In this document: positions 4,924 to 27,001 of the stretch, piece by piece
Numbering within the stretch: position 1 is the first letter of the stretch
Layout: each line of letters begins with the position of its first letter
DNA from: a candidate division FCPU426 bacterium
Lineage (GTDB): Bacteria > Oederibacteriota > Muellerivitia > Muellerivitales > Muellerivitaceae
DNA: 64,000 nucleotides
Direction: 5' to 3'
NCBI GenBank assembly: GCA_963847625.1
Contig: CAWKAR010000045.1
Coordinates: 96,001 to 160,000 of the forward strand
Notes under the pieces: model-generated
What the model was told of the DNA's origin: nothing
The model's input: the letters and a program-made list of their open reading frames with translations, nothing else
Databases searched by the model: none
Translations under genes and position numbers: made by a program

Positions 4924-4942
4924 GCCTGGCCTTTAGGGATGG

Positions 4943-10041: not shown

Positions 10042-12345
10042 ATGGACCTGCAAGAAATCCTTAATTCCATGGTTAACAAAAAGGCCTCTGACGTCCATTT
10101 AAAAGCAGGCGCACCTCCACTTTTCCGCATTGACGGGGACCTATTCCCGCAAAGTGATGTCCCCCTTTCACCTCAGGAACTGGCCGAAGTCGCATCCTAT
10201 TTAATGGACGAGAAACAGCAAAAGTCTTTTTTTGAGGATCACCACGAAGTGGACCTGGCATATGCGGTGGAAGGTTTGGCCCGTTTCAGAACGAACGCCA
10301 TGTGGCAAAGGGGCCTGCCGGAGATCATCATGCGGGTTATTCCTCAGATTGTTCCCCGTATTGAAGACATCAACATGCCCACATCGGTTTTAAAACAGAT
10401 CGCCATGGAACCACGTGGAATGGTCCTAGTGACTGGTATCACCGGTTCCGGCAAATCAACCACCCTTGCGGCCATAATCCACGAAATCAACGTAAACCGA
10501 TCCACCCATATTGTCACCGTTGAAGACCCAATCGAATTTGTGCACCAGGACGTCAAATCCAGCCTGACCCAGAGGGAGGTGGGTTTAGACACGGAAAATT
10601 TTAAAACAGCATTAAAGTATGTATTGAGGCAGGATCCTGATGTCATTCTCATTGGCGAAATGCGGGACGTTGAAACGGTCCAAGCCGCTATAACGGCCGC
10701 TGAAACAGGTCACTTAGTGTTTTCGACTCTTCATACCATGGATACTATCCAGACTATCGAGAGAATTTTAGACTTTTTCCCTCCTGACCAGCAAAACCAG
10801 ATGCGAATCCAACTATCCAACACCCTCCGGGCAGTCATTTCGCAGCGCTTGGTCTCCAAGGCGGATGGAGCTGGAGTGGTCCCAGCCTGTGAAATCATGG
10901 TCGTGACACCCACCATCAAGTCCCTTATTGCCGATGATAAAATTAGCTCAATTCGCAGCTTCATTGCGGAAGGACACAGCCAGTACGGCATGCAAACTTT
11001 CGACCAATCTCTTATCGAACTTGTACGGAAGGGCTTTATCACCAAAGAAAGCGCCATGGAACAGGCCACCTCCCCCAGTGAAATCGATCTAGGCCTTAAG
11101 GGTATTTCCTCGTCAAAAGCTTCTGCACAGTCTCTCATTTCCCAAATGGAGAGTTCCCAGCAAAAGGAACGCGTTGGTGGTTGGCTTAAAAGGGCCCAAG
11201 AACTTTATGAAAAGCGACGCAATGATGAGGCGAAAGCTGAATTAAAGCGGATTCTTCAGGAGATTCCCGAACATAAGGAAGCCAATGCATTGATGGCTCG
11301 GCTTCGGGAAATGGAGGATAAAACCGACAAAAAAAAGGACGCGTCTTCCTCTGTCAAGTCAGCGCTCCAGCTTTACCGGGAGAGTAAATACCAAGCCGCC
11401 ATCTTGGAATTCCAGAAAGCCTTGGAAATCGACCCCGGCAACAAACAAGCCGAAGCTTATATCCGGTCCATTCAAACAGAAATGGATAATCGTGTCCGTG
11501 CCCGGGAGTTTGTACAGGCGGCCATGCAAAAACAACAGCAGAATGATCTTGGAACAGCTCTCAAACACTTGGAGCAAGCCCTTATTCTCGACCCGGAAAA
11601 TGAGCAAGCTCGGGTTCTCCAAAGAGACCTTAAAAACGCTATCCAGAAGGATCAGGCGAAAGAAAAAGCCAAAGAACAAAACCAAACCGCGATTGAACTT
11701 TATAAAGCAGGCGATTTGCTCGGGGCCTTGGTGGCTTGGAACAGGGCTTACGAGTTTAATTCTGAGCTTGAGGAAGTTTCCCGCTATTTGCAGCAAGGCA
11801 TCTCCAAACTACTTTCCTTCGGGGTTGAAGGATTGGAAGGGAACCCTGAAACACAAAATGTTCTTGCCCTCTTTGAGCAAGGTATCCGTAGTTATGTAAG
11901 GAGCGATTTCCAAACGGCTATAGAATTTTTTAAGAAGGCACTTGTCAAGGCCGATGGAAACGCTTATTTGAATGCGTATCTTGAAAAATCTCTACAGATG
12001 GAAGAACAGCAAGTTGAAGAGTTGTTTCGACAAGGTTGGAAAGCTCAAGAGGCGGGAGACTTGGCTGCCGCCCAGAAGGAGTACACAAAGGTTTTAAGAC
12101 TTTCACCTGGACATCCTGAAACAGTCAAACAATTAGCGATCCTCAAGGCTGCCATACAGCAAAAAACCGAAAAATTATACAACGATGGAAAAGTATATTT
12201 CGATCAAAATGACATGGATCGAGCTATTCGAATCTGGGAAAACATACTGAACTTGGATCCGACCAATGAACGGGCTCATAAGAAGATTGAAGAGGCGAAA
12301 ATTAAAAAAAGCACTCTGACTGGAATTTTTTCCAAGATCAGCTAG
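10042..12345 (+). CDS. pilT: PilT/PilU-family type IV pilus retraction ATPase fused to a ~400-aa C-terminal TPR array
   Basis: ASDVHLKAG, Walker A GITGSGKST, TVEDPIEF, LRQDPDVILIGEMRD, ETGHLVFSTLH, GMQTFDQSL, then repeated TPRs. Start moved to ATG 10042 behind AGGAG. Confidence 0.9.
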   Translation: MDLQEILNSMVNKKASDVHLKAGAPPLFRIDGDLFPQSDVPLSPQELAEVASYLMDEKQQKSFFEDHHEVDLAYAVEGLARFRTNAMWQRGLPEIIMRVIPQIVPRIEDINMPTSVLKQIAMEPRGMVLVTGITGSGKSTTLAAIIHEINVNRSTHIVTVEDPIEFVHQDVKSSLTQREVGLDTENFKTALKYVLRQDPDVILIGEMRDVETVQAAITAAETGHLVFSTLHTMDTIQTIERILDFFPPDQQNQMRIQLSNTLRAVISQRLVSKADGAGVVPACEIMVVTPTIKSLIADDKISSIRSFIAEGHSQYGMQTFDQSLIELVRKGFITKESAMEQATSPSEIDLGLKGISSSKASAQSLISQMESSQQKERVGGWLKRAQELYEKRRNDEAKAELKRILQEIPEHKEANALMARLREMEDKTDKKKDASSSVKSALQLYRESKYQAAILEFQKALEIDPGNKQAEAYIRSIQTEMDNRVRAREFVQAAMQKQQQNDLGTALKHLEQALILDPENEQARVLQRDLKNAIQKDQAKEKAKEQNQTAIELYKAGDLLGALVAWNRAYEFNSELEEVSRYLQQGISKLLSFGVEGLEGNPETQNVLALFEQGIRSYVRSDFQTAIEFFKKALVKADGNAYLNAYLEKSLQMEEQQVEELFRQGWKAQEAGDLAAAQKEYTKVLRLSPGHPETVKQLAILKAAIQQKTEKLYNDGKVYFDQNDMDRAIRIWENILNLDPTNERAHKKIEEAKIKKSTLTGIFSKIS

Positions 12346-12465
12346 GATGGTATTAATAGGAAGTGCTTTATTTCACTGCTTAGAAACTTCTTGTCTTCTT
12401 CACTAATAAAAGAAGACAAATGTGCAAATGAAATTGATTAATAATTTTTAAGGACGGGTGTTGGA

Positions 12466-12864
12466 ATGAAAAAATTGGTCATTGCGATTTTGGTTTTGAT
12501 AGTCTTGTTTTTCCTGGCGTTGAACACTTCCATGATGGCTGATCAAGCTTTGAAATGGGTTAAAGAAAATCCTAAGGATCCCCACGCGCCAAAGGTTCTT
12601 TATGACGCGGCACGCTGGTGCGATATATTGGGTGATAATAAAAAAGCCTTGGAAGTTTATTGGGACCTTTATCAACAATATCCTGAAAACTCAGCTTTGT
12701 CCGCAGCAGCTTTATATTACAGCGCCCAAATTGAAGTGGATACGAGCGTTTCAAAACGTCTAGCGGATCCGTTCTTGGCAATCATTTTTAACCAGTATTC
12801 TGGTGAAAGTGATTGGGTGGGAAAGGCCCGAAAGTTACAGGATGAGGTGAATTATGTTCGTTAA
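12466..12864 (+). CDS. Small exported or membrane-anchored TPR-like protein
   Basis: MKK plus hydrophobic N-terminus; TPR-like pattern (APKVLYDAA...KALEVYWDLYQQYPENS...AALY). Confidence 0.6.
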   Translation: MKKLVIAILVLIVLFFLALNTSMMADQALKWVKENPKDPHAPKVLYDAARWCDILGDNKKALEVYWDLYQQYPENSALSAAALYYSAQIEVDTSVSKRLADPFLAIIFNQYSGESDWVGKARKLQDEVNYVR

Positions 12865-13831
12865 ATACGATCGCTGGCTTGTTTTCTACTTTATAGGTTT
12901 GATTACCTTAAGTTGGGGTTCATGTGGTTTTGCTAAGACTATTGAGGTGGAAGAAGATTCTGAAAGCTTGTCGGCATCACCCACCCCTGTCGCTGTCTCG
13001 CCTGCACAAAAAACTCAAAAAACAACGGCCAAATCAATTACAACTAAAACCAAACCGGTTTTAAATAATAATGACACTTTAGAAGCTTCACCATCTGGTT
13101 CTCTGACTGCGCGGGTCCGGGCCGGAGATAATATCAGCTTTTATTATTTTACCAAGGCTGGCTTCGTGGCCAACCAACCTTCTCAAATTCCTTCCATTGG
13201 AAAGATCGTGGGTGATCTCAGCGAAAACGAAACATCGGGTTCTGGGGATATAAGTTACAGCATGGCGAAAAAACCCTACGTTGAAATTTCCTCCAAAGTG
13301 GAATTGAAAAAAGGTGATTTGCTGGTTGTATATCAGTTTGGCCCTGACAAATTAAACGAACCCAGATCGAATTTTACGGGTTTTTTGGTTGAAAATAATG
13401 CAATCGTCAAAGTGAGTAGTGCCCAAAAAAAATATTGCGAAATCGAAATCGTGAAGTCCTTCACTCCTTTTCATGCCGGAGACCATGTTAAATATTACAG
13501 TGATGAGTTGCAAAGATGGAGAAAGGCTCAAACAAAAAAATCTATGCCTAACAAAGAAGTGCGGTGTTTTGTCGCGGGGGGTGATCCGCAAAAAAGCGGT
13601 TATTCTCAAACCGATTTCATTGTGTTGACGGCCGGTTCCAATAACGGTGTTGTTGAAGGCCAAACCTTTCAAATATGCCAACCCGTGAGGAACTCTGGAA
13701 TAAGCGATGAGCTTCATGTCCCCAGGGGTATGGCCCGCGTTTTTTATGCCGGACCAAATTATTCGATGGCCCAAATCCTTTCTAGCCATGAAGCCATCCA
13801 AAAGGGGTTTGAGGCGATTTACCGGCCTTAG
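12854..13831 (+). CDS. Exported protein resembling the C-terminal part of TsaP/LysM-domain proteins (FlgT_C-like), no LysM visible
   Basis: Signal-like N-terminus, low-complexity linker, KAGFV...GKIVG, LKKGDLLVVY, DFIVLTAGSNNGVVEGQTFQI, GMARV...SMAQILSSHEAIQKG. Confidence 0.5.
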   Translation: MFVKYDRWLVFYFIGLITLSWGSCGFAKTIEVEEDSESLSASPTPVAVSPAQKTQKTTAKSITTKTKPVLNNNDTLEASPSGSLTARVRAGDNISFYYFTKAGFVANQPSQIPSIGKIVGDLSENETSGSGDISYSMAKKPYVEISSKVELKKGDLLVVYQFGPDKLNEPRSNFTGFLVENNAIVKVSSAQKKYCEIEIVKSFTPFHAGDHVKYYSDELQRWRKAQTKKSMPNKEVRCFVAGGDPQKSGYSQTDFIVLTAGSNNGVVEGQTFQICQPVRNSGISDELHVPRGMARVFYAGPNYSMAQILSSHEAIQKGFEAIYRP

Positions 13832-13853
13832 GTTGGATCGGGCTAGGCCCAGC

Positions 13854-14690
13854 ATGGATTCTCCCAAACGTACAATGATCGAAGAAGAGCCGTATTTTAG
13901 AAAAATTCTTGAACATATCCTGAATGAAAAAGGTTTTGACGGAAATCAGTATAAATTAAATTACATAAAAAGAAGGTTGGCAGTCCGTATGCGGGCGACT
14001 GGGTCCCGCACATATATGGAATATCTCCGGGTCTTGCATAAAAATCTCAATGAAGTTTCTTTGCTTTTTGATCGTTTAACCATCCACGTAACAGATTTTT
14101 TTAGGGATGCCGATGTTTACCAGTCCTTGAAGGTTCGGGTTCTGCCGGAAATCATCAGAAGCCCAGAAACCCATCTGAAAGTTTGGTGCGCTGGATGCAG
14201 TACGGGCCAAGAACCTTATTCAGTCGCCATCACATTGAAAGAAAGCACTTTGGAAAATGAAGAATTCGATTTTGGAATTATTGCCACGGATATTGACGAA
14301 TCTAGCATCCGCGCAGCAGAACGCGGAGTTTATCCCAAAGTTTCTCTAAATAAACTTACCAAAAGCCAAATCCTAAAATGGTTTTCGGTTGAAGAAGAAC
14401 AAGTTCGGGTTTCGGAAGAACTCCGGAAACACATAAGATTTAAAACCCATGATTTACTTGGCCGATGGAACACGGAACTTTCCGGCTTTCAACTTATCCT
14501 GTGCCGGAATCTTTTTATTTACCTCACTTCCACTCAACAACAAAAGCTTTACGAAAGGTTTAGCCGAGCATTGAAACCCTGTGGTTATTTAGTTCTTGGC
14601 TTAACTGAAACTTTGATGGGTAAAGCTCGGGATTTATTCCATTGCGTGGACGTTCGGAACCGCATTTATCAAGCATACGGTCAGGACTAG
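13854..14690 (+). CDS. cheR: Chemotaxis protein methyltransferase CheR
   Basis: LTIHVTDFFRD, KVWCAGCSTGQEPYS, ATDID, ILCRNLFIY, GYLVLGLTETL. Start moved to ATG 13854, after the upstream stop. Confidence 0.93.
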   Translation: MDSPKRTMIEEEPYFRKILEHILNEKGFDGNQYKLNYIKRRLAVRMRATGSRTYMEYLRVLHKNLNEVSLLFDRLTIHVTDFFRDADVYQSLKVRVLPEIIRSPETHLKVWCAGCSTGQEPYSVAITLKESTLENEEFDFGIIATDIDESSIRAAERGVYPKVSLNKLTKSQILKWFSVEEEQVRVSEELRKHIRFKTHDLLGRWNTELSGFQLILCRNLFIYLTSTQQQKLYERFSRALKPCGYLVLGLTETLMGKARDLFHCVDVRNRIYQAYGQD

Positions 14691-14722
14691 TTTAAAAATA
14701 GTTTTACCGAGGTTTATGGGTA

Positions 14723-15904
14723 ATGGACAAGGCTCAAGACCATATCAATTTGGGAACCGCTTTTACCCTCTCCAAACGCTACGAAGACGCGATTGTGGAG
14801 TTTAAAAAGGCTCTTGCCTTAAGTCCTTCAGACGGTGAAATCCTTTTTCAACTCGGTGGACTTTGTACTAATGTCGGGAATTACGAAGAAGCGGAAGGGT
14901 TTTACCGCAACGCACTTGGGATTAATCCCATGAACTTGAACGCACATTGCAAGTTGGGGTTATTGTTGGAAGTCCAAGGCAAGTATCAGGAGTCTATTCT
15001 TGAATTCCAAAAGGCTACTGAACTGAATCCCACGGATGCAGGCCTTTATAATAACTTGGGAAATGTTTATTCCAAAATGGGAAAATACCAGGACTCTATT
15101 GAACAGTTTAAGAAATATATCAGTATCAATCCGAGCAATGCGGAAATATTTTTCAAAATGGGTTTTTCCTTTGAACAATTGGCAAGACTTGATGAAACCA
15201 TTAATTCCTATGAGAAGGCTCTGGTTCTCAACCCCCGCCACGCGGCTGTTTATTCCATCCTCGGAAATGCCTACGCAAAAAAAGGGGATTATCAGGAAGC
15301 CATTTCCCTTTATCAACAGGCCCTTCGCCTAAACCCTCATGAGCCGGAAGTCCATTTAAAACTAGGTATAGCCTTTATGTCCCTCGGTCAATACGATAAG
15401 GCCCTTGAGGTTTTGGAGGAAGCTCGTCAAAAGAATCCTAAAAATGCTGAAGTCTATTTGAAATTCGGAATGATTTACGCCGGTCGAGGTCAACATGAGG
15501 AAGCTATCCAAATGTATCGCAAAGTCATGGAAATTAACCCGCATGATGCAAGTGTTCATAACGTATTGGGGTATATTTACGACCGTCAAGGAGAAGCAGA
15601 GAAGGCCATGGAAGAATACCGCGCGGCCAAACTCATTAACCCAAACGATATTTCGATTTTGGACAATCTAGGCAACTTAAATTACAAGCAAGGATATTTT
15701 GACGAGGCTGCCCAGGATTTCGAGAACCTCGTGCGTCTCAATCCTTCTCACAGCGATGCTCACGCCAAATTGGGAAATGTCTATTTAAAAAAAGGCGAAA
15801 AAGATAAAGCCATTACACATTGGGAAAGGGCCCTGGAATTGGATCCTTCCAACGAAATCTTGAAGAATAATCTGAGGATTGTGAAGGGGAGCCCCGCTTC
15901 ATGA
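14723..15904 (+). CDS. Cytoplasmic all-TPR protein (~11 repeats)
   Basis: Continuous 34-aa TPR periodicity (e.g. YNNLGNVYSKMGKYQDSIEQFKKYISINP); no signal peptide. Confidence 0.9.
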   Translation: MDKAQDHINLGTAFTLSKRYEDAIVEFKKALALSPSDGEILFQLGGLCTNVGNYEEAEGFYRNALGINPMNLNAHCKLGLLLEVQGKYQESILEFQKATELNPTDAGLYNNLGNVYSKMGKYQDSIEQFKKYISINPSNAEIFFKMGFSFEQLARLDETINSYEKALVLNPRHAAVYSILGNAYAKKGDYQEAISLYQQALRLNPHEPEVHLKLGIAFMSLGQYDKALEVLEEARQKNPKNAEVYLKFGMIYAGRGQHEEAIQMYRKVMEINPHDASVHNVLGYIYDRQGEAEKAMEEYRAAKLINPNDISILDNLGNLNYKQGYFDEAAQDFENLVRLNPSHSDAHAKLGNVYLKKGEKDKAITHWERALELDPSNEILKNNLRIVKGSPAS

Positions 15905-16539
15905 TGAAAACTCAAGAGAAATCACTTGGCGAATTACTGCGCCAAGCTGGGAAAATCACTTCCCGGCAAATTCAAGTAGCACTGGCTGAACAACGAAAAA
16001 CACATGAACCCATCGGAAAAATCCTAGTGGCGCTAGGATTTGTCGAAGATAGGGATATTTTGCAGGTTATGGAAGGCATGGTGGTATTAACATTCCGGAT
16101 TGAAAAAGAGCTTTATGGCATAGAAACTTTTCGGACGAGAGAGGTATTGAAATTTACACCTTTAAAATCCATTACCCAATCCACGCGAAATTGGGAAGGA
16201 ATTTTTTTGCTTCGCGGTGAGGAAATTCCCGTGTTGTCCTTCCGGAAATACCTTGGCCTTCCGGCAGTTTCCTGCCCCAATCAGAGTTGGTTTGTCGTTC
16301 TTGAAAAAAAAGGAAAGTCTTTCGCCCTTTGGGTTGATCAAGTAAAAGAGGTCACCCGCTTCAAGATTGAACAAATAGAACCTGTCCCACCATATCTTTT
16401 TGGAAAAAAATCCGATTTATATTATTGTTTAGGTAAAATAAAAGATGAGCTTTATTCGATTATCAATCCCGATAAAATAATGGAGGATAGCATCCAAATG
16501 CAACAATCCTCTGAGGATGACCATGTCAGCCCGACCTGA
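15901..16539 (+). CDS. MshEN-like N-terminal domain fused to a CheW-like domain
   Basis: SLGELLRQAGKITSRQIQVALAEQRKTHEPIGKILVALGFV matches the tandem MshEN pattern. The remainder (TFRIEKELYGI...EGIFLLRGEEIPVL...ALWVDQVKEV...IINPDKI) is CheW-like. Confidence 0.8.
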   Translation: MMKTQEKSLGELLRQAGKITSRQIQVALAEQRKTHEPIGKILVALGFVEDRDILQVMEGMVVLTFRIEKELYGIETFRTREVLKFTPLKSITQSTRNWEGIFLLRGEEIPVLSFRKYLGLPAVSCPNQSWFVVLEKKGKSFALWVDQVKEVTRFKIEQIEPVPPYLFGKKSDLYYCLGKIKDELYSIINPDKIMEDSIQMQQSSEDDHVSPT

Positions 16540-18733
16540 AACCAAAACCATTCGCGAATTAGCCCATGGAAGTGACCAAGGGGATGCATCTACCCATAAC
16601 AATCTTGGTGTTTTTTATTATTCAAAGGGTATGTATGCAGAAGCCATTAAAGAGTTCAAGACTGCGCTGGAAGTTGACCCGGAAAACATCCAGTCCTTGG
16701 AAAACCTCAAGGCTGTCAACCGCCACACCGGCCTCTACGACCGATCCATTGAAGCCTACAAAAAATCCGTCCAAATGTTCCCCTCGGATCCCGAGGCCTG
16801 TTATAACCTCGCCAATTCCTACCGATATACAGGGCAATATGAAAAGGCTGTGGCCGAATATCAAAAAACCATCGTCTTAAATCCCGAACACCCCTTTGCA
16901 CGAAACTACCTTGGTATAACCTATAAGTGCATGGGGCAATTAGAGGATGCCATAAAGGAATTTAAGAAGGCCATCGAGGATAATCCCTATTTTGCTGACC
17001 TTCACAACAATTTGGGCGAAGTCTATTACAAAAAAGCCATGCTCAATGAAGCCCTCGTTGAGTTCAAAAAAGCTATTTCACTCAATCCCGATTATGCCAT
17101 TGCCCATTACAACCTGAGTTTCGTTTACGGCGACAAGAATATGATGGACGAAGCCGAAAGAGAGTTTAAAAAAGCTGTCGATTTGAATCCGAATTACGGG
17201 CAGGGGGCTCAGACACTTTTATCGATAGAACGATCAAAAAGCATGGAGGAAAAAGTCGCCGAAAAGATAGCTTCCCAGCCTCCTACCTCTGCTGTGGAAA
17301 CATACTTGAGCCTTGCCTCCGCTTATCGGGGGAAAGGACTTCTCGATGAGGCGATCCGGGAGTACAAAAGAGCCCTTGAAGTTATACCTAATGAAGAAAA
17401 ATCATATCGATCTTTGGGAGAAATCTATCTCCAGAAGGGAATGATGGAAGATGCTTTGATGTCCTTCCAAAAGGCCATCGATATTTCCCCTGGCAATATC
17501 GAAAATTACATTCAACGCGGCATCGCTCTTCGAGAGTTGAATCGGGTTGATGCGTCGGTCGATGAATTCCTAAAAGCCATTGATCTTTCACCTGATTCCA
17601 GCATGGCTCATTTTGAACTCGGAGTGACATACTTTAAAATGGGTGAAAGTGATAAAGCCACGCGAGAAGTCCGGCGCGCCTTGGAAATTGATCCGGAGAA
17701 CGCCGAAGCACATTATTACCTTGGCGTTTATTACTACAAAGTCAATCTTTATGACGAAGCCATCCGTGAAATCACTCAAGCAGTTGAACTGGATGTTTCC
17801 ATCGCCTCAAGTGCGGAAGCTCTGATATATTTAGGTTTGGCTCTTGCCGATAAGGGCCGATTTGAAGAAGCAATCGCCGAGTACAAGAAGGCGATGGAAT
17901 TGGATTCAAAAAATCCCATCATACATAACAGTTTGGGAGTGGCTTATAAAAACGCTGGTATGATCGAAGAAGCTATCCAACATTATCAGAAAGCTATCTC
18001 TCTAAATCCCCAATATGCTAAGGCTTATAACAATCTAGGTGTAGTTTATTTCAAGATGAGCCAGTATGAAAAAGCAATCGAAACGTTCAAAAAAGCTGTT
18101 GAAATCGAGCCGGAATACAAAACCGCACAAAACAATCTTTCGGTGGCTATGAAAAAAAGAAGTGTTCTTTCCGAAGCGTCAGAAGTCTTGATTAAGCAGA
18201 TCATGGCTGATCCGGAAAATTACTCCTTGCACCAAAACCTTGGGATACTTTATAAAAACACAGGACAGTTTTCCGAAGCCGTTCGCGAGTTCCAAGAGAC
18301 CATTCACTTAAGTCCGAAAAACCGGGAAGCCCTTACACAACTAGGCGAAACCCACCTCCAACTCGGGCAGTTGGACGAGGCGGTCAAAATTCTCGCCAGA
18401 GCGATTTCCTGCGATCCGGCGCATCCGGACGCACATTTGCAATTGGGAAAGGTTTATATCCAACGACAGTGGTGGGACGAGGCACTTGTGGAATTGAAGA
18501 AAAGCCTTGAAGGTAATACGGGTATGGCGGAAGTCTATTACTATCTCGGCCAAGTCTACCGCTTTAAGGGCTGGTGGGATGACGCCATTCAAAAATTCCA
18601 GATGTACCTAGATTCATCCAATACTGAAGAAGACAAGGTCATCCAATCCATTGATATAATCCAACAAATCCAAGTTTGGAGAAAAGAACTACAAGTTTCT
18701 CCAAGCGGGGATAAGTCAAAATATATAAAATAG
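16517..18733 (+). CDS. Large cytoplasmic all-TPR protein
   Basis: TPR repeats over nearly all 738 aa (HNNLGVFYYSKGMYAEAIKEFKTALEVDP etc.). Confidence 0.9.
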   Translation: MTMSARPETKTIRELAHGSDQGDASTHNNLGVFYYSKGMYAEAIKEFKTALEVDPENIQSLENLKAVNRHTGLYDRSIEAYKKSVQMFPSDPEACYNLANSYRYTGQYEKAVAEYQKTIVLNPEHPFARNYLGITYKCMGQLEDAIKEFKKAIEDNPYFADLHNNLGEVYYKKAMLNEALVEFKKAISLNPDYAIAHYNLSFVYGDKNMMDEAEREFKKAVDLNPNYGQGAQTLLSIERSKSMEEKVAEKIASQPPTSAVETYLSLASAYRGKGLLDEAIREYKRALEVIPNEEKSYRSLGEIYLQKGMMEDALMSFQKAIDISPGNIENYIQRGIALRELNRVDASVDEFLKAIDLSPDSSMAHFELGVTYFKMGESDKATREVRRALEIDPENAEAHYYLGVYYYKVNLYDEAIREITQAVELDVSIASSAEALIYLGLALADKGRFEEAIAEYKKAMELDSKNPIIHNSLGVAYKNAGMIEEAIQHYQKAISLNPQYAKAYNNLGVVYFKMSQYEKAIETFKKAVEIEPEYKTAQNNLSVAMKKRSVLSEASEVLIKQIMADPENYSLHQNLGILYKNTGQFSEAVREFQETIHLSPKNREALTQLGETHLQLGQLDEAVKILARAISCDPAHPDAHLQLGKVYIQRQWWDEALVELKKSLEGNTGMAEVYYYLGQVYRFKGWWDDAIQKFQMYLDSSNTEEDKVIQSIDIIQQIQVWRKELQVSPSGDKSKYIK

Positions 18734-18739
18734 GTAAAA

Positions 18740-19530: not shown

Positions 19531-19578
19531 TGACTGGTCTTTTGATCCTTTCCGGATGGAGATTTTTGGTATGAAGGG

Positions 19579-20226
19579 ATGAATCCTATGGGTAAGGAAT
19601 CGGAATCTTTTTCGGAACTTCAATTGGACGCTCTTCGCGAAATAGGTAATGTGGGGGCCGGTAATGCTGCAACCGCTCTTTCTCAAATGGTGGGGCGACC
19701 CATTGAAATGTCCGTTACTCGTGTGAAGGTTCTTCCCACAGAAGAGATCGCGAAATTCCTGGGCGGAATGGAAAAAAATGTTGCCGCCGTCCATATGCCC
19801 GTTTATGGAGATATTTCCGGCGTTGTCCTTATATTCTTTCCTATTGAAGTATTACCTGGTTTGGCAGTTTCCTTACTTCAAAGGGAAATAACAACGACAA
19901 CCGACCTCATGGAATTGGACCGATCCGCTATCAAAGAATTAGGAAGCATTTTAACTGGTTCTTATTTGAGTGCTTTGTTCCGCTTTGTCCAAGTTCAAAT
20001 GATTCATGGGGTTCCTACCCTTGTTATCGACATGGCCCAAGCAATACTAGATACAGTACTGGTCGACCTGGAGCAAAAAGAGGAAATCGCTATTGTGATT
20101 GAAACAGAGTTTTTGGAGAAAGATCGAAAAATTACCGGTAGTTTCTTTCTATTACCTGAAACCGGCACTTTGAAAAGATTTTTTACCTCATTTTCAAAGT
20201 CAATTGGGTCACTCGGTGATGTATGA
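19579..20226 (+). CDS. cheC: CheY-P phosphatase CheC (copy 1)
   Basis: LDALREIGNVGAGNAATALSQM and SAIKELGSILTGSYLSAL. The second site has S where the ExxN motif has N. Confidence 0.92.
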   Translation: MNPMGKESESFSELQLDALREIGNVGAGNAATALSQMVGRPIEMSVTRVKVLPTEEIAKFLGGMEKNVAAVHMPVYGDISGVVLIFFPIEVLPGLAVSLLQREITTTTDLMELDRSAIKELGSILTGSYLSALFRFVQVQMIHGVPTLVIDMAQAILDTVLVDLEQKEEIAIVIETEFLEKDRKITGSFFLLPETGTLKRFFTSFSKSIGSLGDV

Positions 20227-20704
20227 AACGGATAGGGTGGTTGGAATTGCCGAATATTTAACCGCTCAGAATCCTGACCGACTAGTGGCATATGGTTTAG
20301 GTTCTTGTGTAGGAATAGCATTATATGACCCTAGGCTTAAATTGGGCGGTTTGGCACACGCCATGCTGCCATTGAGTCAGTTTCACCCACAATCCAAGTC
20401 ACGTGGGAAATTTGTCGACACCGCTTTAGAAGAGCTTTTAGGAATAATGAAAAAGGTGGGGGGGCGCCAAAAACGTTTGCAAGCTAAGCTGGTTGGAGGT
20501 GCGAATATGTTTACCTCGATTGTTAGGAATCCCCTTCCTATTGGGCTCCGAAATATCATGGCCGCCAGAGAAATATTAAAAAATTACCAAATTCCCATCG
20601 TTAGCGAGGAGGTGGGAGGGATGCAGGGACGAACGATGTTCTTTTCTCTATCCGATGGAAGAATTCAGATAAGGAAATTAAACCAGGTGGATCAATGGAT
20701 TTGA
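20219..20704 (+). CDS. cheD: Chemoreceptor glutamine deamidase CheD
   Basis: GLGSCVGIALYD, GGLAHAMLP, AKLVGGANMF, IGLRN, EEVGGMQGRT. Confidence 0.93.
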   Translation: MYETDRVVGIAEYLTAQNPDRLVAYGLGSCVGIALYDPRLKLGGLAHAMLPLSQFHPQSKSRGKFVDTALEELLGIMKKVGGRQKRLQAKLVGGANMFTSIVRNPLPIGLRNIMAAREILKNYQIPIVSEEVGGMQGRTMFFSLSDGRIQIRKLNQVDQWI

Positions 20705-20859
20705 CAAAAGTGTTTTGTAATTTAAAAGTTTAAGCTTTAAAAACAATAATATTGATTAAAAAATCAAAAAGAACTTGAATAGAAAATATTTTGATTGATC
20801 GCTTCTTTTTTTTCTGACTTAGATCTGTTTTATATCAACGCAAAGGAGTGAATTGACGG

Positions 20860-21375
20860 ATGGCCACAGAGGTGTCAGAAGTTGTCAATACATCTTCACA
20901 GGAAAGCACTCAAACTCAGCTGGTAGTTTTCGCGCTTTCGAGTTGTTTATTCGGCGCGGGGATTCGACAGGTCCGAGAGATTATCCGTTTGACCGAAATG
21001 ACACTGGTCCCCAAGACACCCGCATTCGTAGAAGGAATCATCCATTTACGGGGAAAGATCATTCCTATCATGGACTTGAAAAAGCGTTTTGGAATGCCAC
21101 TTATAGAATATACCCCTGAAAGCCGAATTCTTATCATGGATTGGCAGGAACAGACGATGGGTCTTTTGGTAGACAAGGTTTTAGAGATTGGGCGCATTGC
21201 TCCCGATACTCTTGTTCCGGTTACTGAACCTATTTTGGATATTAACGAGACTTTTTTTGAGGGGAGGTTGAAGTGGAGGGAGCAAATGGTTTTACTGTTA
21301 AACTTGGAAAAGGTATTTTGGTTTGAAGGCTGGAAAATATTACCGGAATACGAGATGAATTCCCAGGAGGAGTAA
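20860..21375 (+). CDS. cheW: Coupling protein CheW
   Basis: QLVVFAL, VREII, VPKTPAFVEGIIHLRGKIIPIMDLKKRF, GLLVDKV. Confidence 0.92.
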   Translation: MATEVSEVVNTSSQESTQTQLVVFALSSCLFGAGIRQVREIIRLTEMTLVPKTPAFVEGIIHLRGKIIPIMDLKKRFGMPLIEYTPESRILIMDWQEQTMGLLVDKVLEIGRIAPDTLVPVTEPILDINETFFEGRLKWREQMVLLLNLEKVFWFEGWKILPEYEMNSQEE

Positions 21376-21378
21376 CCC

Positions 21379-21741
21379 TTGGCTTATCGAGTTTTATTCG
21401 TCGACGATTCGTCTTTTATGCGCACCATCCTGAAGGGAATTATTTTGAAAGAACCTTTTGTTTTAGCGGGGGAAGCCTCCAATGGCAAGGAAGCATTAGA
21501 AATTTTCAAAAAGGAAAATCCCGATTTGGTAACCATGGACATTGTCATGCCCGAAATGGATGGTATTGAAGCCGTGCGTCAGATCCGAGCCCTTAAACCT
21601 GATGCAAAAATCATCATGGTTAGCGCAATGGGACAACAAAGCATGGTGATTGACGCCATTCAGGCAGGCGCTCGTGATTTTATTATTAAACCCTTTCAAC
21701 CACCCCGTGTCCAAGAAGCTTTGAAGAGAGTGATGGGCTAA
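21379..21741 (+). CDS. cheY: Response regulator CheY (copy 2)
   Basis: VDDSSFMR, PDLVTMDIVMPEMDG, MVSAMGQQ, FIIKPF. TTG start behind AGGAGGAG. Confidence 0.92.
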   Translation: MAYRVLFVDDSSFMRTILKGIILKEPFVLAGEASNGKEALEIFKKENPDLVTMDIVMPEMDGIEAVRQIRALKPDAKIIMVSAMGQQSMVIDAIQAGARDFIIKPFQPPRVQEALKRVMG

Positions 21742-21779
21742 GGTATAAATAAAGATCGGGATATTTCCCAGGAGATTTC

Positions 21780-22880
21780 ATGCCCGCTGAAAAAAATCCC
21801 ACCGTACGGGTTCTGGTGGTGGACGATTCTTTTTTCATCCGGAAAATTCTATCAGAAATTCTCAATGCACCCGGAAACAATATAATCGTTTTAGATACAG
21901 CCCAAGACGGTTTAGAAGCCGTAAAAAAAGCAAAAGATTTAAAGCCGGATGTGATTACTCTTGATATTGAAATGCCCCGCCTGAATGGTATCGCTGCTCT
22001 TGAAAAAATCATGATGGAAAATCCAACTCCCGTGGTCATGCTTTCAAGCCATACGGGGAAGGGCACCGAAGCCACTCTTCGTGCTCTTGAAATCGGCGCT
22101 GTGGATTGCGTCTTAAAACCATCGGCCAAACCTCTTGTGGATTTGCGAAGTATCCAGCAGGAATTAGTGGAAAAAATTAAAATGGCCGCACTTTGCCGCC
22201 CACGTTTTGGTCATTTGAATCTGGGCGGGATGTTGTCCACCGCTTTAGAAACTGCGCCTACAACGGTTTCACAGCCATTTGAAGGGTTGGGAATTTCGGA
22301 ACAACCTGCCCAATTCTTAATTACTGTTGCATCTTCAACCGGCGGTCCCAGGGCTTTAAACGAATTTTTTTCGAAAATTGAGACCAATCCTTTAAACGCT
22401 TTCCTAATCGTCCAGCATATTCCGGTGGGTTTCACCAAAGCATTGGCAAAACGCCTCTGCGAAGTTAGCGCCATGATGATCACGGAGGCGATGGATGAAG
22501 AAATTATATTGGGGGGACATGCTTACGTAGCCCGGGCGGGAAGTCATTTAACCGTGACCGGAAAACCTGGAAATTTCAAGCTGGCCTTGAATGACTTACC
22601 TCCCCGTCTCGGAGTAAAACCTTCCGCGGACATCCTTATGAACTCGGTCGCCAAGGCCGCGGGAATTCGTTGTGCGGGTGTGATTTTGACTGGGATGGGC
22701 CGGGATGGGACCGCCGGGTTGAAGGAAATCCGTTTAGTTGGGGGCAAAACCTTCGCGCAAGACGCGGAAAGCTGTGTTATTTACGGTATGCCCAAATCAG
22801 CAGTGGAATCGGGAGTGGTGGATCGCCAGTTGCCTCTGGACCAATTGGCCCGAGAGTTGAATATTCTGTTCAAGGGGTAA
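21780..22880 (+). CDS. cheB: Chemotaxis methylesterase CheB (REC plus methylesterase)
   Basis: PDVITLDIEMP, ASSTGGP, VQHIP, KPSAD, LTGMGRDG, YGMP. Confidence 0.95.
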   Translation: MPAEKNPTVRVLVVDDSFFIRKILSEILNAPGNNIIVLDTAQDGLEAVKKAKDLKPDVITLDIEMPRLNGIAALEKIMMENPTPVVMLSSHTGKGTEATLRALEIGAVDCVLKPSAKPLVDLRSIQQELVEKIKMAALCRPRFGHLNLGGMLSTALETAPTTVSQPFEGLGISEQPAQFLITVASSTGGPRALNEFFSKIETNPLNAFLIVQHIPVGFTKALAKRLCEVSAMMITEAMDEEIILGGHAYVARAGSHLTVTGKPGNFKLALNDLPPRLGVKPSADILMNSVAKAAGIRCAGVILTGMGRDGTAGLKEIRLVGGKTFAQDAESCVIYGMPKSAVESGVVDRQLPLDQLARELNILFKG

Positions 22881-22949
22881 TAATGGAACCATTAAATTGT
22901 TTTAGGATGAAATGCAACTACTCAGACAATTCTTGACGGGAGTCGGATT

Positions 22950-25034
22950 TTGAACGGAAACGAATACAAGGATGTTTTCCTCAACGAAGCAAGAGAATAC
23001 CTTTCTTCACTGAACAACGCCCTCGTGGTTTTAGAAAAAGATCCCACACAAATTGAACCCATTCGGGAAATATTCCGAGTGGCCCATACAATGAAAAGTA
23101 TGTCCGCTACCATGGGTTATGAACCCATGTCACGTCTTACCCATCAGATGGAATCTGTCATGGAACCAATACGCTCCGGCTCGGGTTTCCTATCATCAAG
23201 GTTAGTGGACAGCCTTTTTTCTTGCCTCGACCAATTGGAAAACTGGATTAAAACGCTAGAAACCCAGGATGAAATCAAGGAAGGAGATTTGGAAAAGAAA
23301 TTAAATATGCTTAAAGAGAATGCCGGGGAGAAAGTCCCGGGGCCCGTTTCAACTCCCGCTGGCGCAGTTTCCCCTGACGAAATATTTCCGTTTCAAATTT
23401 CCGATTCTGAAGAAGAAGTTCTTTCCCAGGCTAGAATGAGCGGATTTTTTGTGTATGAAATTAACGTTGTGCTTGATCCGGAATGTGTATTCAAGGAAGC
23501 CCGGGCTTTTTTAGTGCTCCGAACCGTCAACGAGCTTGGGGAAATTGTAAAATCAAGCATATCTCCGAAAGATTTGGAAAAAGGCCAATTTGATAGGAGA
23601 TTTTGCCTTATCGTGGTATCGGAAAAATCCAAAGAAAGTATTAAGGAAGCTATTTTAGGAATTTCCGAAATTCAACATGTGCGAGTGGAAAATTTCCAAC
23701 AGGGGATAAAAGAAACGGTGGACCCCTTGCCCAATAACGAAGTACAGTTCCCGTCAACCGTTGAACAAAGTGGTTCCGCCCTGACGGAAGAAAAAACATA
23801 TATCCTTTCCACAGTCCGGGTACACACCTCGAAACTCGATAAACTCATGGCTTTAGTGCAGGAATTAATGATTTCAAAAAGCCGATTTGAACAGGTGATT
23901 CGCACGAACGCCATAAAGGAATTGGTTGAACCACTCTCCCGGCTTAATTTCATCACCGATGAGCTCCAGGACGAGATCATGAAAGTCCGTTTAATCCCAG
24001 TAAAACAAATATTCGAACGCTTTCCACGGATGGTTCGTGATTTGGCTAAAACCTTGGACAAGAAAATAAATCTGGAAATAGAAGGCGCCGAGGTGGAACT
24101 AGATCGGACTGTTATTGACGAAATTAGTGAGCCCCTTGTTCACTTGCTTAGAAACGCGGTAGACCATGGCATTGAGCACTCCGATGAACGTGTACGGGAG
24201 AGAAAGGAAGCCTTCGGTACGATTCGTCTCCAGGCAAAACGTGACCGATCCTACGTGATAATTTCCGTTTCTGACGACGGACGGGGAATCGACCCGGAAA
24301 AAATACGCCAAACTTCTGTTGCGAAGGGATTAATATCAGCTGAAGATGCATTGAAATTGACCGACGAGGAGGCCTTGCGCTTGATTGGTCTTCCGGGCTT
24401 TTCCACCGTAGAAAAACCAACGGAAATCTCTGGACGCGGGGTTGGCGTAGAAGTAGTGAAAACCCGGGTCGAAGCGATGGGAGGAAGCTTTCGCATTCTC
24501 AGCCGAAAGGGCCAGGGGACAACGATGATTCTCCGCTTTCCATTAACCTTAGCCATTATTAAAGTCCTGCTTGTTAAATGTGACGAGGAAACATTTGCTA
24601 TTCCCGTCGTAAACGTCGTGGAAACCATTGATTTGATTCCGGCCGAAATCAAAGTGGTACAACAACAGGAAACATTCGTTTTGAGGGACGAAGTCATACC
24701 ACTTTATCAGCTTCATGATTTGTTGGAATTGGAAGGCACCCTTGAAAGAATAAACTTGAATGATTATGAGTCTTTGATTATCGCTGAGGTTGGGGATTCA
24801 AGAATCGGTATTAAGGTTGACCAGATTCTCAGCCAACAGGAAGTGGCTATTAAATCACTCGATAAAGCGCTGAAGGGAATCAGGGGTTTTTCAGGCGCCA
24901 CCATACTGGGTAATGGGGAAATCGCCCTCATATTGGATATTAACGGCTTAGTGGAAGACCTTAAAGATCGGCGGATTCGTGCCGATTCATTTTATCCACG
25001 GAAGGGGATTCACCATGTTACCCAATCTCGATGA
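22950..25034 (+). CDS. cheA: Histidine kinase CheA (HPt-P2-dimerisation-HATPase-CheW)
   Basis: IFRVAHTMKSMSATMG, P2-like region (ARAFLV...GEIVKS), HLLRNAVDHGIE, DDGRGID, SGRGVG, GATILGNG. Confidence 0.96.
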   Translation: MNGNEYKDVFLNEAREYLSSLNNALVVLEKDPTQIEPIREIFRVAHTMKSMSATMGYEPMSRLTHQMESVMEPIRSGSGFLSSRLVDSLFSCLDQLENWIKTLETQDEIKEGDLEKKLNMLKENAGEKVPGPVSTPAGAVSPDEIFPFQISDSEEEVLSQARMSGFFVYEINVVLDPECVFKEARAFLVLRTVNELGEIVKSSISPKDLEKGQFDRRFCLIVVSEKSKESIKEAILGISEIQHVRVENFQQGIKETVDPLPNNEVQFPSTVEQSGSALTEEKTYILSTVRVHTSKLDKLMALVQELMISKSRFEQVIRTNAIKELVEPLSRLNFITDELQDEIMKVRLIPVKQIFERFPRMVRDLAKTLDKKINLEIEGAEVELDRTVIDEISEPLVHLLRNAVDHGIEHSDERVRERKEAFGTIRLQAKRDRSYVIISVSDDGRGIDPEKIRQTSVAKGLISAEDALKLTDEEALRLIGLPGFSTVEKPTEISGRGVGVEVVKTRVEAMGGSFRILSRKGQGTTMILRFPLTLAIIKVLLVKCDEETFAIPVVNVVETIDLIPAEIKVVQQQETFVLRDEVIPLYQLHDLLELEGTLERINLNDYESLIIAEVGDSRIGIKVDQILSQQEVAIKSLDKALKGIRGFSGATILGNGEIALILDINGLVEDLKDRRIRADSFYPRKGIHHVTQSR

Positions 25035-25629
25035 TTTAACCCCTTCCCAGTTGGACGCTTTGAAGGAGGTTGGGAATATAGGTGCTGGGCATGGGGCGAC
25101 AGCTCTTTCTCAACTTTTAAGGAAAAAAATTCTAATAACGGTTCCAAAGGCCAATATTCTCGCCTTTTCAGATGTACCCAAATTAATGGGAGACCCGAAT
25201 ACCTTGGTTGCAGGCTTGGTCTTGAATATTCTTGGGGATGCTACCGGGAAAATACTTTTATTATTCCCAAGGGATTCTGCCCTTCATTTAGCCGATTTAC
25301 TCTTGAAACAACAAGTGGGTACCAGCCAGATCCTAACTGAAATGGGACATTCCGCAATCAAGGAGGCTGGAAATATCCTAACGGGAGCCTATTTGAGCGC
25401 GTTAAATGAATTTTTAGGAATGCTCTTGTTGATTTCCGTGCCTACACTTGTCTTTGACATGGCTGGAGCCCTATTGACCACTATCACCCAGGGAATGGAG
25501 GACGTAACAAAGGTCATTTGTATTGAAACACAATTTATCGATTCCAACGAGGTGGTGGGTGGCTATTTCATTTTGGTTCCAGATGCCACTTCCTTGAGGG
25601 CTATATTTCAGGCTATTAAATTGAGATAA
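25015..25629 (+). CDS. cheC: CheY-P phosphatase CheC (copy 2)
   Basis: LDALKEVGNIGAGHGATALSQL and SAIKEAGNILTGAYLSAL, both ExxN sites intact. ATG at 25015. Confidence 0.92.
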   Translation: MLPNLDDLTPSQLDALKEVGNIGAGHGATALSQLLRKKILITVPKANILAFSDVPKLMGDPNTLVAGLVLNILGDATGKILLLFPRDSALHLADLLLKQQVGTSQILTEMGHSAIKEAGNILTGAYLSALNEFLGMLLLISVPTLVFDMAGALLTTITQGMEDVTKVICIETQFIDSNEVVGGYFILVPDATSLRAIFQAIKLR

Positions 25630-25906
25630 ATTTAGAATAAGTATCAAACTTCTCTTTTATTCAGCCTAATCGTTAATTGTGTACCAGCTGTTCAATTATC
25701 TTGTTCCACATAAGGCGATACTTTATTTTATGTTATTTCGGCTACCAGCGAATAGTCACAAATCTTTTACGTTAAACAACCGGGGTTCTGGGAATTCAAA
25801 TATTATGATAAATGAAAGTATTCATCGTAAAAAGAACAGTGTACTATTTGAAAAAATCTGATCGAATAACCCTGATAATAAAACAATAACGGTTGGGAAG
25901 GACTTT

Positions 25907-27001
25907 ATGATCTCAATTTCTCTCATCGCAGGAAAAATCATTGTTTTTTGTAAACACCCTAAACCCACCAAGACTCAATTAGGTGCCTGCTGCAAGGAAA
26001 TATTAGAAAATTTTAAATTTGATTGCGTTTTCCTCGCGCACTCCACCCTTCCGGAAGGCGAATTGAATAAAGTGGCATTTGAAGGCAAGGAAGAAATTAT
26101 GGAAGCTTGTATTTACCGGTTGGGTGTTGAAGAAAGGTTGGCATTGACAAAGCTTTCGTATAAGACTTATTCGGATATCACCGGAAAACCCGTATTTAAT
26201 AAGTCGGGATCCTTGCGCATCCAAAAACCCAATAGCGGAGTTTACCTGGTTCTGTATCGGCCTAAAAAAGATTTTTTAATATTAGGATGCGCTCATCAAG
26301 AGCCCCGAACCTATGATTCCAAAATGTTGAACGATCTTGCTGATGTTTGGAAAGCCTCCCGTGAAGACTTATGTGAAACAGTCCGTAAAGTTCAGGGATT
26401 GGGAATGGCTTCCGACCAAACGGTGACTACGCCACTCTCCGCACCTCCAGTCCAGCCCAAGCTAGATTTAAAGATACCAGATATCCAAAGGCCAACCCAA
26501 AAGACCGTATCCAATGGAAAACACCGCAAGTCTACCCTTCTTGTGGATGAGGTTACAAAGCTTTTCAACCGTGATTACTTTGAGGATTGCCTGGCAATCG
26601 AGGTGGAGAGGGCAAAACGGTATTCCAGGCATCTAAGTCTTATTTTCTTAAGTGTGTCCCCAATGAACCAATCTGTGCAGAAAGAGGATGAGATTGCGCT
26701 CCAAATCACCGAAATTCTTTCCCGCAGTTTGCGCCGGGTGGACGTGATCTGCAGGCTTGAAAAAAACAAATACGCGCTAATTTTACCGGATACAGCGACC
26801 AACACTTACGGCACAATCGCCAAGAGGATTTTCAAGCATTTCAAAGATGTCATGGGTCCTAACCCGCCCGTTTTTCTCAATGTTAGTGCGTCATCTTATC
26901 CAAAACATGCCGATAACCATCTTTCGTTGTTTCAAAACGCCGAAAATTTATTAATTCAGGCCAAGGAAGTCGGACCCAATAAAGCTGTTCTTCCGGAATA
27001 G
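25907..27001 (+). CDS. Degenerate GGDEF-domain protein (likely catalytically inactive) with an unknown N-terminal domain
   Basis: DEVTKLFNRDYF...EVERAKRY...LRRVDVICRLEKNKYALILPDT: GGDEF replaced by EKNKY, RxxD I-site retained. Confidence 0.8.
   Translation: MISISLIAGKIIVFCKHPKPTKTQLGACCKEILENFKFDCVFLAHSTLPEGELNKVAFEGKEEIMEACIYRLGVEERLALTKLSYKTYSDITGKPVFNKSGSLRIQKPNSGVYLVLYRPKKDFLILGCAHQEPRTYDSKMLNDLADVWKASREDLCETVRKVQGLGMASDQTVTTPLSAPPVQPKLDLKIPDIQRPTQKTVSNGKHRKSTLLVDEVTKLFNRDYFEDCLAIEVERAKRYSRHLSLIFLSVSPMNQSVQKEDEIALQITEILSRSLRRVDVICRLEKNKYALILPDTATNTYGTIAKRIFKHFKDVMGPNPPVFLNVSASSYPKHADNHLSLFQNAENLLIQAKEVGPNKAVLPE

Follow-up and report, generated by a model that had tools for sequence, protein, structure and literature searches.

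A conserved non-flagellar Dif-like chemosensory cluster with an unlinked receptor gene and a possible role in type IVa pilus-based surface behaviour

Gene organization of the cluster

The window, that is, the whole 64,000-nucleotide stretch of DNA analysed, belongs to genome G000 and contains 16 co-oriented genes on the + strand plus a degenerate GGDEF gene (17 in total) at 10042-27001. Both the genes and their order agree with the original prediction.

10042..12345, +, PilT-family ATPase with a C-terminal TPR arm of ~400 aa (PilT-TPR), 767 aa; TIGR01420
12466..12864, +, small helical membrane-anchored protein, weakly TPR-like, 132 aa; TPR_14 below cut-off
12854..13831, +, TsaP-like secretin-associated protein without LysM, 325 aa; fold match to 6VE2
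13854..14690, +, cheR methyltransferase (ORF opens at 13707; likely start 13854); Pfam CheR and CheR_N
14723..15904, +, cytoplasmic all-TPR protein TPR393, 393 aa; about 11 TPRs (Pfam)
15901..16539, +, MshEN-CheW fusion, predicted c-di-GMP-binding adaptor, 212 aa; NF053729 above cut-off
16523..18733, +, large cytoplasmic all-TPR protein TPR738, ~736 aa; 13-15 Pfam TPR stretches
18740..19078, +, dedicated PII paralogue, 112 aa; Pfam P-II
19168..19530, +, cheY1 response regulator; phospho-Asp, Ser and Lys kept
19588..20226, +, cheC1 phosphatase; second E-x-x-N site is E-L-G-S in family f1
20219..20704, +, cheD deamidase; catalytic Cys and His retained
20705..20859, no strand, 155-bp gap; site of a DifA-type receptor gene in 12 relatives
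20860..21375, +, cheW, DifC position; Pfam
21379..21741, +, cheY2, DifD position; Pfam and alignment
21780..22880, +, cheB with receiver domain; Pfam and NCBIfam
22950..25034, +, cheA with Hpt, P2, dimer, HATPase and CheW domains, no receiver
25015..25629, +, cheC2 phosphatase, DifG position; both sites intact
25907..27001, +, possibly GAF-like, degenerate GGDEF protein, predicted c-di-GMP receptor; RxxD intact

With the chosen starts, five junctions overlapped by 4-20 bp and two had gaps of 3 and 6 bp, and the widest intergenic gaps were 155 bp (cheD-cheW) and 277 bp (cheC2-GGDEF). A scan for promoters and terminators gave 23 and 21 candidates against 30.0 and 23.4 in shuffles, which is chance level. 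The cluster is flanked by housekeeping genes (prfA-prmC and the dprA-topA neighbourhood).

Chemosensory core and flagellar genes

A whole-genome profile search identified the CheA of the cluster as the sole CheA of G000. It has one Hpt, a P2 domain and no receiver, and does not show the Tfp-class pattern of a C-terminal receiver and several Hpt domains. The cluster encodes all three CheW domains of G000, so no other kinase was found for the three MCPs of this genome. cheY1 was more conserved than cheY2 (67-94% identity over 18 relatives). cheC2 occupies what we take to be the difG position in the dif order.

In a CheA tree of 190 sequences (one left out, no named DifE included), the orthologues of the phylum formed a single clade with a support of 0.99. 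The named CheAs near it, in a tree whose root is unreliable, included ones from Euryarchaeota, Methanolobus and Pyrococcus and were of archaeal and Bacillota type; just 6 of the 30 near CheA clusters carried an organism name, none of them Myxococcus or Geobacter. The top NCBIfam model for CheA was CheA_Halo, with a score under its cut-off. Horizontal arrival, considered with regard to the lower GC (0.42-0.46), was rejected in view of the single clade of phylum CheAs and the conserved gene order.

CheA-P2 without receiver, CheB, CheR, CheC, CheD and receptors of 44 heptads (44H) are all features of the F1 class, the list used being in part general knowledge, and CheA-P2, CheC, CheD and 44H receptors are of the Bacillus/Thermotoga type. 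The cluster could be a flagellar F1 system of the usual kind, its flagellar genes lost to gaps in the assemblies, or a decaying relic; flagellin was found in 10 of 60 phylum genomes and G000, whose assembly is 94% complete, gave one FliG_C match. However, this match was a lone 206-aa fragment, weak and under the NCBIfam cut-off, and no flagellin was found in any of the 25 genomes of family f1, some of which are 99% complete and assembled into about 5 contigs. The profile search of G000 gave no match for flagellin, FliM/N or FlhA, and no MCP or flagellar motor, filament or export family was matched among the 41 window proteins, just as the original prediction had stated for the window and had proposed for a non-flagellar output. 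Control of a flagellar motor, also an F1-class character, was not found. The flagellated genomes G036 and G037 have a second CheA from another clade, which in G037 adjoins the flagellin genes. The intact catalytic residues and the high conservation speak against a relic. The ordinary flagellar reading is largely refuted and, with the relic, very improbable. In G000 the type IVa pilus locus is complete (pilB-pilT-pilC-pilMNO-pilQ).

The cognate receptor

The cluster had been described as receptor-less, which proved to be a local rearrangement. Twelve relatives, spread over seven other families, encode between cheD and cheW a sensor-less two-helix receptor of 44 heptads, and in G000 its orthologue lies on another contig (G000:C60:17309-18577, 422 aa). 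This C60 receptor was the best G000 match of five in-cluster receptors and was reciprocal in their genomes. By hydropathy its helices span residues 15-33 and 45-63 with a loop of about 11 aa; it has a HAMP domain and a 154-residue C-arm (22 heptads) and aligned to TM1143 with one gap position. Dif-like MCPs, as defined by Tran et al. (2008), are of the 44H type, cross the membrane twice and have a periplasmic loop of about 3-10 aa, and the C60 receptor, with 44H, two transmembrane segments and a short periplasmic loop, belongs with them. A second 44-heptad receptor of G000 (C39) carries a periplasmic domain.

c-di-GMP and PII parts

The MshEN domain scored 57.4 bits against a cut-off of 38 in the NCBIfam c-di-GMP-motif model NF053729. 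Its structural model overlaid MshE (5HTL) at 0.8 A over 51 columns (E 0.024), and the CheW fold was present. The tandem 24-residue motifs keep their four conserved Gly, the clusters of Leu and the first Gln; they start with Ser and Pro, not Arg, and the second has no final Gln. Arg-less MshEN c-di-GMP binders exist (PMC11731258). The MshEN-CheW profile matched in 48 of 60 phylum genomes, and the homologues among the matches listed (120 of 349) all looked in-phylum.

The nucleotide-binding motifs of PII (B-loop and C-terminal) were retained in 17 of 17 rows. In E. coli numbering, T-loop Tyr51 was present in families f1 and f2 only and position 58, a Lys in GlnB/GlnK, was Arg except in f8. G000 encodes GlnD next to another PII, and the PII gene of the cluster lies immediately upstream of cheY1 in 33/33 contiguous relatives. 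Our literature search turned up no account of the PII or MshEN-CheW components of such a cluster.

The degenerate GGDEF gene was seen in the cluster in families f1 and f2 only. Its RxxD inhibitory site was present in 12/12 rows and the GGDEF active site was replaced in all 11 rows that reached it, hence the predicted role as a c-di-GMP receptor; the GAF-like assignment is a lead. PelD is a c-di-GMP receptor of this I-site-only degenerate GGDEF type.

TPR and envelope proteins

TPR393 adjoins cheR in 33/33 contiguous relatives. A TPR738 orthologue was found in 26 of 41 genomes but not in family f3 or in che-less genomes, and a search for relatives outside the phylum was swamped by generic TPR proteins. 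The original prediction of a small TPR adaptor stands in part: the 132-aa protein is weakly TPR-like, below cut-off, while a cytoplasmic adaptor role is not supported, because its N-terminal hydrophobic segment (residues 4-22) makes an envelope location likely. Wherever both were seen, its gene was immediately upstream of tsaP-like.

TsaP combines a C-terminal TsaP fold with an N-terminal LysM peptidoglycan-binding domain. The TsaP-like protein had no LysM match and no Pfam match above cut-off; FlgT_C, matched below it, was the single Pfam match in the window with a flagellar name. Its model had a pLDDT of 80, the N-terminal 80 residues being of low confidence. With Foldseek, the single match under 0.001 was P. 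aeruginosa TsaP 6VE2 (E 1.1e-5), overlaid with a TM of 0.59 by target length and an rmsd of 7.4 A; the atlas match was under the recognition threshold.

Conservation and pilus linkage

The cluster marker was detected in 48 of the 60 genomes of this uncultured, largely unflagellated phylum. In 39 of these 48 there was no flagellin match, and cheR to cheB was contiguous in 33 other genomes. As a baseline we used generic cheA loci among the matches listed in a metagenome scan: PII, TsaP-like and PilT were found in none of these 130 unrelated loci (80 of them at least 15 kb, 49 with cheC), so the association exceeds chance. In G013 and G023 (genus g13), cheR through GGDEF is missing as one block, and unlinked receptors, TPR738, MshEN-CheW and a cluster-type PII were not found in these two genomes. 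CheR to CheC, both large TPR proteins, MshEN-CheW, PII and the distant receptor were thus lost together, which makes them one module. The contiguous genomes and this co-loss bear out the co-inheritance of PII, TPRs and MshEN-CheW with the che core across the phylum, and the TPR genes and PII remain linked to che genes in relatives, as the original prediction expected. Loss events are few, with one in g13 and a likely second covering both f7 and f10, and counts of genomes therefore exaggerate how independent the cases are.

The predicted linkage of pilus genes to the che cluster was also found. tsaP-like lies upstream of cheR in 10 families and is a steadier pilus link than PilT-TPR. In f7 and f10 the module is kept with tsaP-like absent or a remnant, and cheA-cheC lies a few genes away from pilT-pilMNOPQ-aroC. 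A secretin gene was present in 39 of 41 genomes, module-less ones included, so pilus presence does not discriminate. Such linkage might be incidental, through the conserved housekeeping neighbourhood that flanks the cluster, with another target such as a ~705-aa FtsA/PilM-like protein, whose gene lies downstream of cheC2 in most families (f2, f3, f7, f8, f10, f15, f17, f18, f20 and some f1). But G000 and most of f1 keep the module without this gene at the locus, lineages differ in which of three pilus genes or loci is linked, and the other MshEN domains of G000 sit on PilB copies only. We therefore consider incidental linkage improbable.

PilT-TPR

PilT-TPR is a second PilT of G000, the canonical copy being in pilBTC. 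It scored 463 bits with TIGR01420 (cut-off 319) and retained the Walker A, Asp, Walker B and His boxes in all 37 aligned rows. The AIRNLIRE helix, a motif of canonical PilT, is diverged in PilT-TPR and near-canonical in the pilBTC copy.

In the original prediction a CheY-P or TPR adaptor docks on the TPR arm of PilT and switches retraction, with motor and che genes as an obligate unit. The intact ATPase motifs fit this model, and so does the position of pilT-TPR at the head of the cluster in 19 of the 37 genomes with both (f1, f2, f3 and f14, a linkage across distant families; 2 more are cut by contig ends). However, the two dissociate both ways, 4 of 60 genomes having PilT-TPR without the module and 11 of 60 the module without PilT-TPR; they are unlinked in 16 of the 37; and reciprocal clean deletions of each occur at one locus. 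The PilT tail is also hardly less conserved without che (identity to the outgroup 0.49 in two che-less and 0.48-0.55 in 13 che-bearing genomes). The claimed wiring to PilT-TPR is weakened, and the docking model is unlikely. PilT-TPR belongs to a pilus-accessory block separable from the che module. These natural deletions delimit module membership and caution against PilT-TPR as an obligate target.

Proposed mechanism and alternatives

Our reading, held tentatively and with nearly even chances of being right, is that of a conserved non-flagellar Dif-like module whose receptor gene moved elsewhere and which controls type IVa pilus-based surface behaviour. We infer a Dif-like F1-type system gated by c-di-GMP and PII. 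The C60 receptor, without a ligand-binding domain, would read a membrane partner, as thought for DifA, and the C39 receptor with its periplasmic domain could add a chemical input. CheA would phosphorylate both CheY1 and CheY2, and CheR, CheB, CheD and the two CheCs would provide full adaptation, fitting the steering of movement. MshEN-CheW may make array coupling dependent on c-di-GMP, and the dedicated PII may bring in ATP/ADP (perhaps 2-oxoglutarate) via the TPR protein next to it. To take CheY-P to the pilus machine, the TPR proteins would act as adaptors, like CheF between archaeal F1 systems and the archaellum. PilT-TPR would be a neighbouring accessory motor, an optional target at most.

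It is possible, though we would not presume it, that a phylum-wide F1-type system steers type IVa pili directly, with TPR proteins comparable to CheF, a c-di-GMP-switched CheW and an array-dedicated PII. If true, this would be a third build of twitching chemotaxis besides Pil-Chp and Frz, with direct PII input to Che.

The direction of control may be reversed here, since in M. xanthus Dif acts downstream of the pilus and has exopolysaccharide as its output (PMC5544727). The pilus would then be the input: the receptor would report pilus or secretin state, CheY2 would be a phosphate sink like DifD, and the output would be exopolysaccharide, adhesion or c-di-GMP level via a regulator encoded elsewhere. 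The DifA-type receptor, the order mcp-cheW-cheY-(cheB)-cheA-cheC, an HD-GYP phosphodiesterase gene within the cluster in f8, f15, f18 and f20, the I-site-only GGDEF of f1 and f2 (similar to PelD or CdgA receptors) and the envelope TsaP-like protein, not a motor, as the steadiest pilus link all point this way. We nevertheless hold it doubtful: the Dif pathway of M. xanthus is reported to work independently of CheR (PMC2577667) while a full CheR/CheB/CheD adaptation set is present here, and no Myxococcus or Geobacter name occurs among the near CheA clusters, most of which are nameless.

The module offers small soluble parts amenable to study without culturing the host, and if its CheW fusion binds c-di-GMP, or PII a chemosensory scaffold, either would give signals a new way into receptor arrays.

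Comparison with known systems

In gene content and order the module fits the definition of Dif-like clusters published by Tran et al. (2008); relatives have the order mcp-cheW-cheY-cheB-cheA-cheC, and the dif order was taken from locus tags (PMC3945109). Like M. xanthus Dif and Geobacter Dif-like systems, the module has a two-helix 44H receptor of ~420 aa with almost no periplasmic domain (PMC5544727, PMC3945109, PMC2577667), CheA with P2 and no receiver, CheW, CheY and CheC, CheD and CheR as in Geobacter, and a non-flagellar, pilus-associated setting. Unlike Dif, it adds CheB, a second CheY, CheC and CheW, and also MshEN-CheW, PII, two TPR proteins, TsaP-like and PilT-TPR. Also unlike Dif, in G000 it has its receptor encoded away from the cluster, and the likeness is one of gene content and order.

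With Thermotoga, Bacillus and archaeal F1 systems the module shares CheA-P2, CheB, CheR, CheC, CheD and 44H receptors (PMC10782961, PMC13747009). Archaeal F1 systems steer the archaellum via the adaptor CheF (PMC10782961, PMC13747009). Unlike F1 systems, the module has TPR, PII and c-di-GMP parts, and lies in a diderm host with type IVa pili in which no flagellar switch or flagellin was found. Pil-Chp (Tfp class) and Frz are alike in the chemosensory control of type IV pili, but their CheAs carry receivers, in the Tfp class often with several Hpt, and the CheA here has one Hpt, a P2 and no receiver.

Like the accessory PilT paralogues of M. xanthus (PilU, MXAN_6705/6706; PMC13584747), PilT-TPR is an extra PilT-family ATPase with the four motifs beside a canonical PilT; its arm is a ~400-aa TPR array whereas that of PilU is described as disordered (PMC13584747). 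By locus tag, MXAN_6705/6706 are about ten genes from difA (MXAN_6696). The Bd2492 (TPR)-CdgA-MglA-RomR hub of Bdellovibrio (PMC3983030), likened here by its parts, also joins a TPR scaffold and a degenerate GGDEF c-di-GMP receptor in a type IV pilus-dependent process; unlike the module, that hub as described has no chemosensory core or PII.

Gene cluster and genomic setting

The cluster comprises 16 genes in one orientation (10042-25629), followed by a degenerate GGDEF gene extending to 27001 and then by dprA and topA. Domain assignments agreed with the gene list of the original prediction across the cluster. Fold comparison bore out the TsaP-like identity of a protein without LysM, and the MshEN-CheW fusion was supported by both profile search and fold comparison. 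CheA, CheB, CheD, CheC2, the two CheYs and the PilT domain all retain their catalytic residues. In the degenerate GGDEF protein the GGDEF site is dead, with RxxD retained in 12/12 rows.

The non-flagellar setting also held for the whole source genome (G000, 93.9% complete), where flagellin, FliM/N and FlhA had no match and a pilus locus is present. Relevant loci of this genome are as follows.

C38:79846-96002 (L093 and downstream): pilus locus pilB-pilT-pilC-pilMNOPQ-aroC; after aroC come aroB and the genes for a TPR protein of 436 aa and a Roadblock protein
C52:24524-25144 (L096): lone 206-aa protein, weakly matching FliG_C (FliG C-terminal), with no flagellar genes next to it
C27:172134-173953: a second pilB-like gene, lying across two reading frames
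C24:9654-11807: tandem pilT-like genes, the second one split

The layout of the pilus locus is presumably like that of Myxococcus and Geobacter. The genome has 20 GGDEF matches and GlnD. Its only three CheW domains all lie inside the cluster, and its three MCPs all lie outside it.

Other features of the window are four membrane glycosyltransferase-like genes directly 5' of the cluster (347-9705; TMEM260-like, PMT_2; two with TPRs), similar genes also preceding pilT-TPR in family f1; insertion-sequence transposase genes (33814-36942; HTH_38/rve and rve_3 types) ahead of lpx genes; and two adjoining giant ORFs of 2013 and 1580 aa (49448-60228), for which Pfam gave no match at E 0.01.

Conservation and receptor

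The host phylum is uncultured; the MshEN-CheW of one relative is 91.5% identical to a protein labelled 'Candidatus Goldbacteria'. The MshEN-CheW profile matched 48 of 60 phylum genomes, each at least 90% complete, with the match in one of the 48 (G045) covering the CheW part only. Flagellin matches occurred in 10/60 genomes, nine of them among the 48, and in 0/25 genomes of family f1. The stretch from cheR to cheB is contiguous in 33 relatives whose loci were read, these relatives having been picked by their matches, and loci outside the 33 were ended by contig edges or spanned another stretch. At one locus (L023, G018), cheC1 and cheA are broken into several parts, through either assembly error or decay.

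Among the 130 unrelated cheA loci listed, none had PII, TsaP-like or PilT genes, and three (L191, L192, L198) had MshEN-like motifs, within the linker of CheA itself. The CheAs of the phylum form one clade (support 0.99); near neighbours that carry a name include sequences from archaea, Omnitrophota and Geothermincolia and a single one from Deltaproteobacteria.

An MCP of 420-437 aa lies between cheD and cheW in 12/33 relatives from seven families, and is absent from this position in the other 21 (f1, f2, f7, f10). When five in-cluster MCPs were searched against the source genome, the best match was C60:17309-18577, and the reverse search recovered the five. The C60 receptor combines two helices, spaced by about 11 residues, with HAMP, a C-arm of 154 residues and methylation sites with Gln, and aligns nearly gap-free with TM1143. 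C39 encodes a second receptor of this length class, which has a periplasmic domain. The system is thus not receptor-less, contrary to the original prediction.

CheR, MshEN-CheW, PII, two CheYs, two CheCs, CheD, CheW, CheB, CheA, the receptor and the two large all-TPR proteins TPR393 and TPR738 constitute one co-inherited module, whose hosts are mostly non-flagellated, piliated bacteria.

Module boundaries and PilT-TPR

Obligate wiring of the che module to PilT-TPR, a PilT-family ATPase with a C-terminal TPR arm, is quite improbable. Both occur in 37 of the 60 genomes, the module alone in 11, PilT-TPR alone in four and neither in eight, counts that represent few independent events. In the 37, pilT-TPR adjoins the module in 19, is cut off by contig ends in two and lies apart in 16. 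In two genomes, G013 (99% complete) and G023, cheR through GGDEF is missing and pilT-TPR, small TPR and tsaP-like lead directly into dprA; neither genome has an unlinked DifA-type receptor, TPR738, MshEN-CheW or cluster-type PII, and G013 has no MCP match anywhere. In G030 and G036, pilT-TPR is missing, prfA-prmC run into cheR, and one PilT each lies above E 1e-75; because 17 candidates per genome were scored for the counts above, absence of PilT-TPR in the other f7 and f10 genomes means 'not found' only. Conservation of the PilT tail was 0.49 without che versus 0.48-0.55 with che. That each is kept without the other, with tail conservation alike, weakens the wiring originally proposed.

The tsaP-like gene sits before cheR in 10 families, and in four families an HD-GYP phosphodiesterase gene lies between them (L018:2705-4084; L020, L204, L205, L208, L209, L213). 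A protein of about 705 aa, FtsA/PilM-like with a weak MoaD-like C-terminal match, is encoded 3' of cheC2 in most families.

FtsA/PilM-like gene: L018:16634-18748; L014, L015, L016, L017, L019, L020, L022, L024, L204, L205, L208, L210, L213

In the source genome this position is a 277-bp gap (25630-25906), and none of its ORFs is a close copy.

PilT variants were also seen (G027, G034, G040, G041, G042, G043; L104, L105). Families f4, f11, f12 and f13 have a close orthologue without TPR tail, and f9 has pilT-TPR followed by a second PilT of about 480 aa. In G029 (L103; single contig, no che matches) pilT-TPR lies directly 3' of an apparent ribosomal alpha operon, judged by N-terminal sequences.

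Proposed output

MshEN-CheW is predicted to bind c-di-GMP. The leading Arg residues of the motifs matter in MshE (PMC5013675); both are lacking in MshEN-CheW, although an Arg-less domain binds tightly (PMC11731258). PII would sense nucleotides, the TPR proteins may act as scaffolds, and the pilus machine is the putative output. Our tentative reading, to which we give slightly less than an even chance, is a non-flagellar system acting on the pilus machine and steering movement. The reversed arrow, in which pili act upstream and exopolysaccharide is the output, is favoured by the precedent of Dif (PMC5544727), whereas the full adaptation set speaks for steering of movement instead; we consider the reversal rather unlikely.

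Comparison with known systems

DifA is a 413-aa receptor with two helices and 44H (44-heptad class), and DifE, the CheA, has P2 and lacks a receiver (PMC3945109). Tran et al. defined a Dif-like cluster by a 44H receptor of such kind together with CheA, W, Y, C and D (PMC2577667). By gene content, the present cluster is Dif-like under this definition, and the module is a real, conserved, non-flagellar system of Dif-like/F1 kind.

Full-text literature searches, in which subscription journals are little covered, found no description of MshEN-CheW, of PII within a che cluster or of the whole cluster. MshEN is unmentioned in the main text of two surveys of CheA/CheW architecture (PMC10782961, 10.1101/2022.05.07.491037), whose supplements may list it. 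The two inputs, MshEN-CheW and PII, are apparently new to the literature.

Other elements have precedents. The module would have a working mode like that of Dif in Myxococcus xanthus. Steering of type IV filaments by F1 systems is known in archaea and proposed for Chloroflexota (PMC13747009), a pilus-dependent hub with TPR and degenerate GGDEF proteins is already known in Bdellovibrio (PMC3983030), and accessory PilTs are already known in M. xanthus (PMC13584747).
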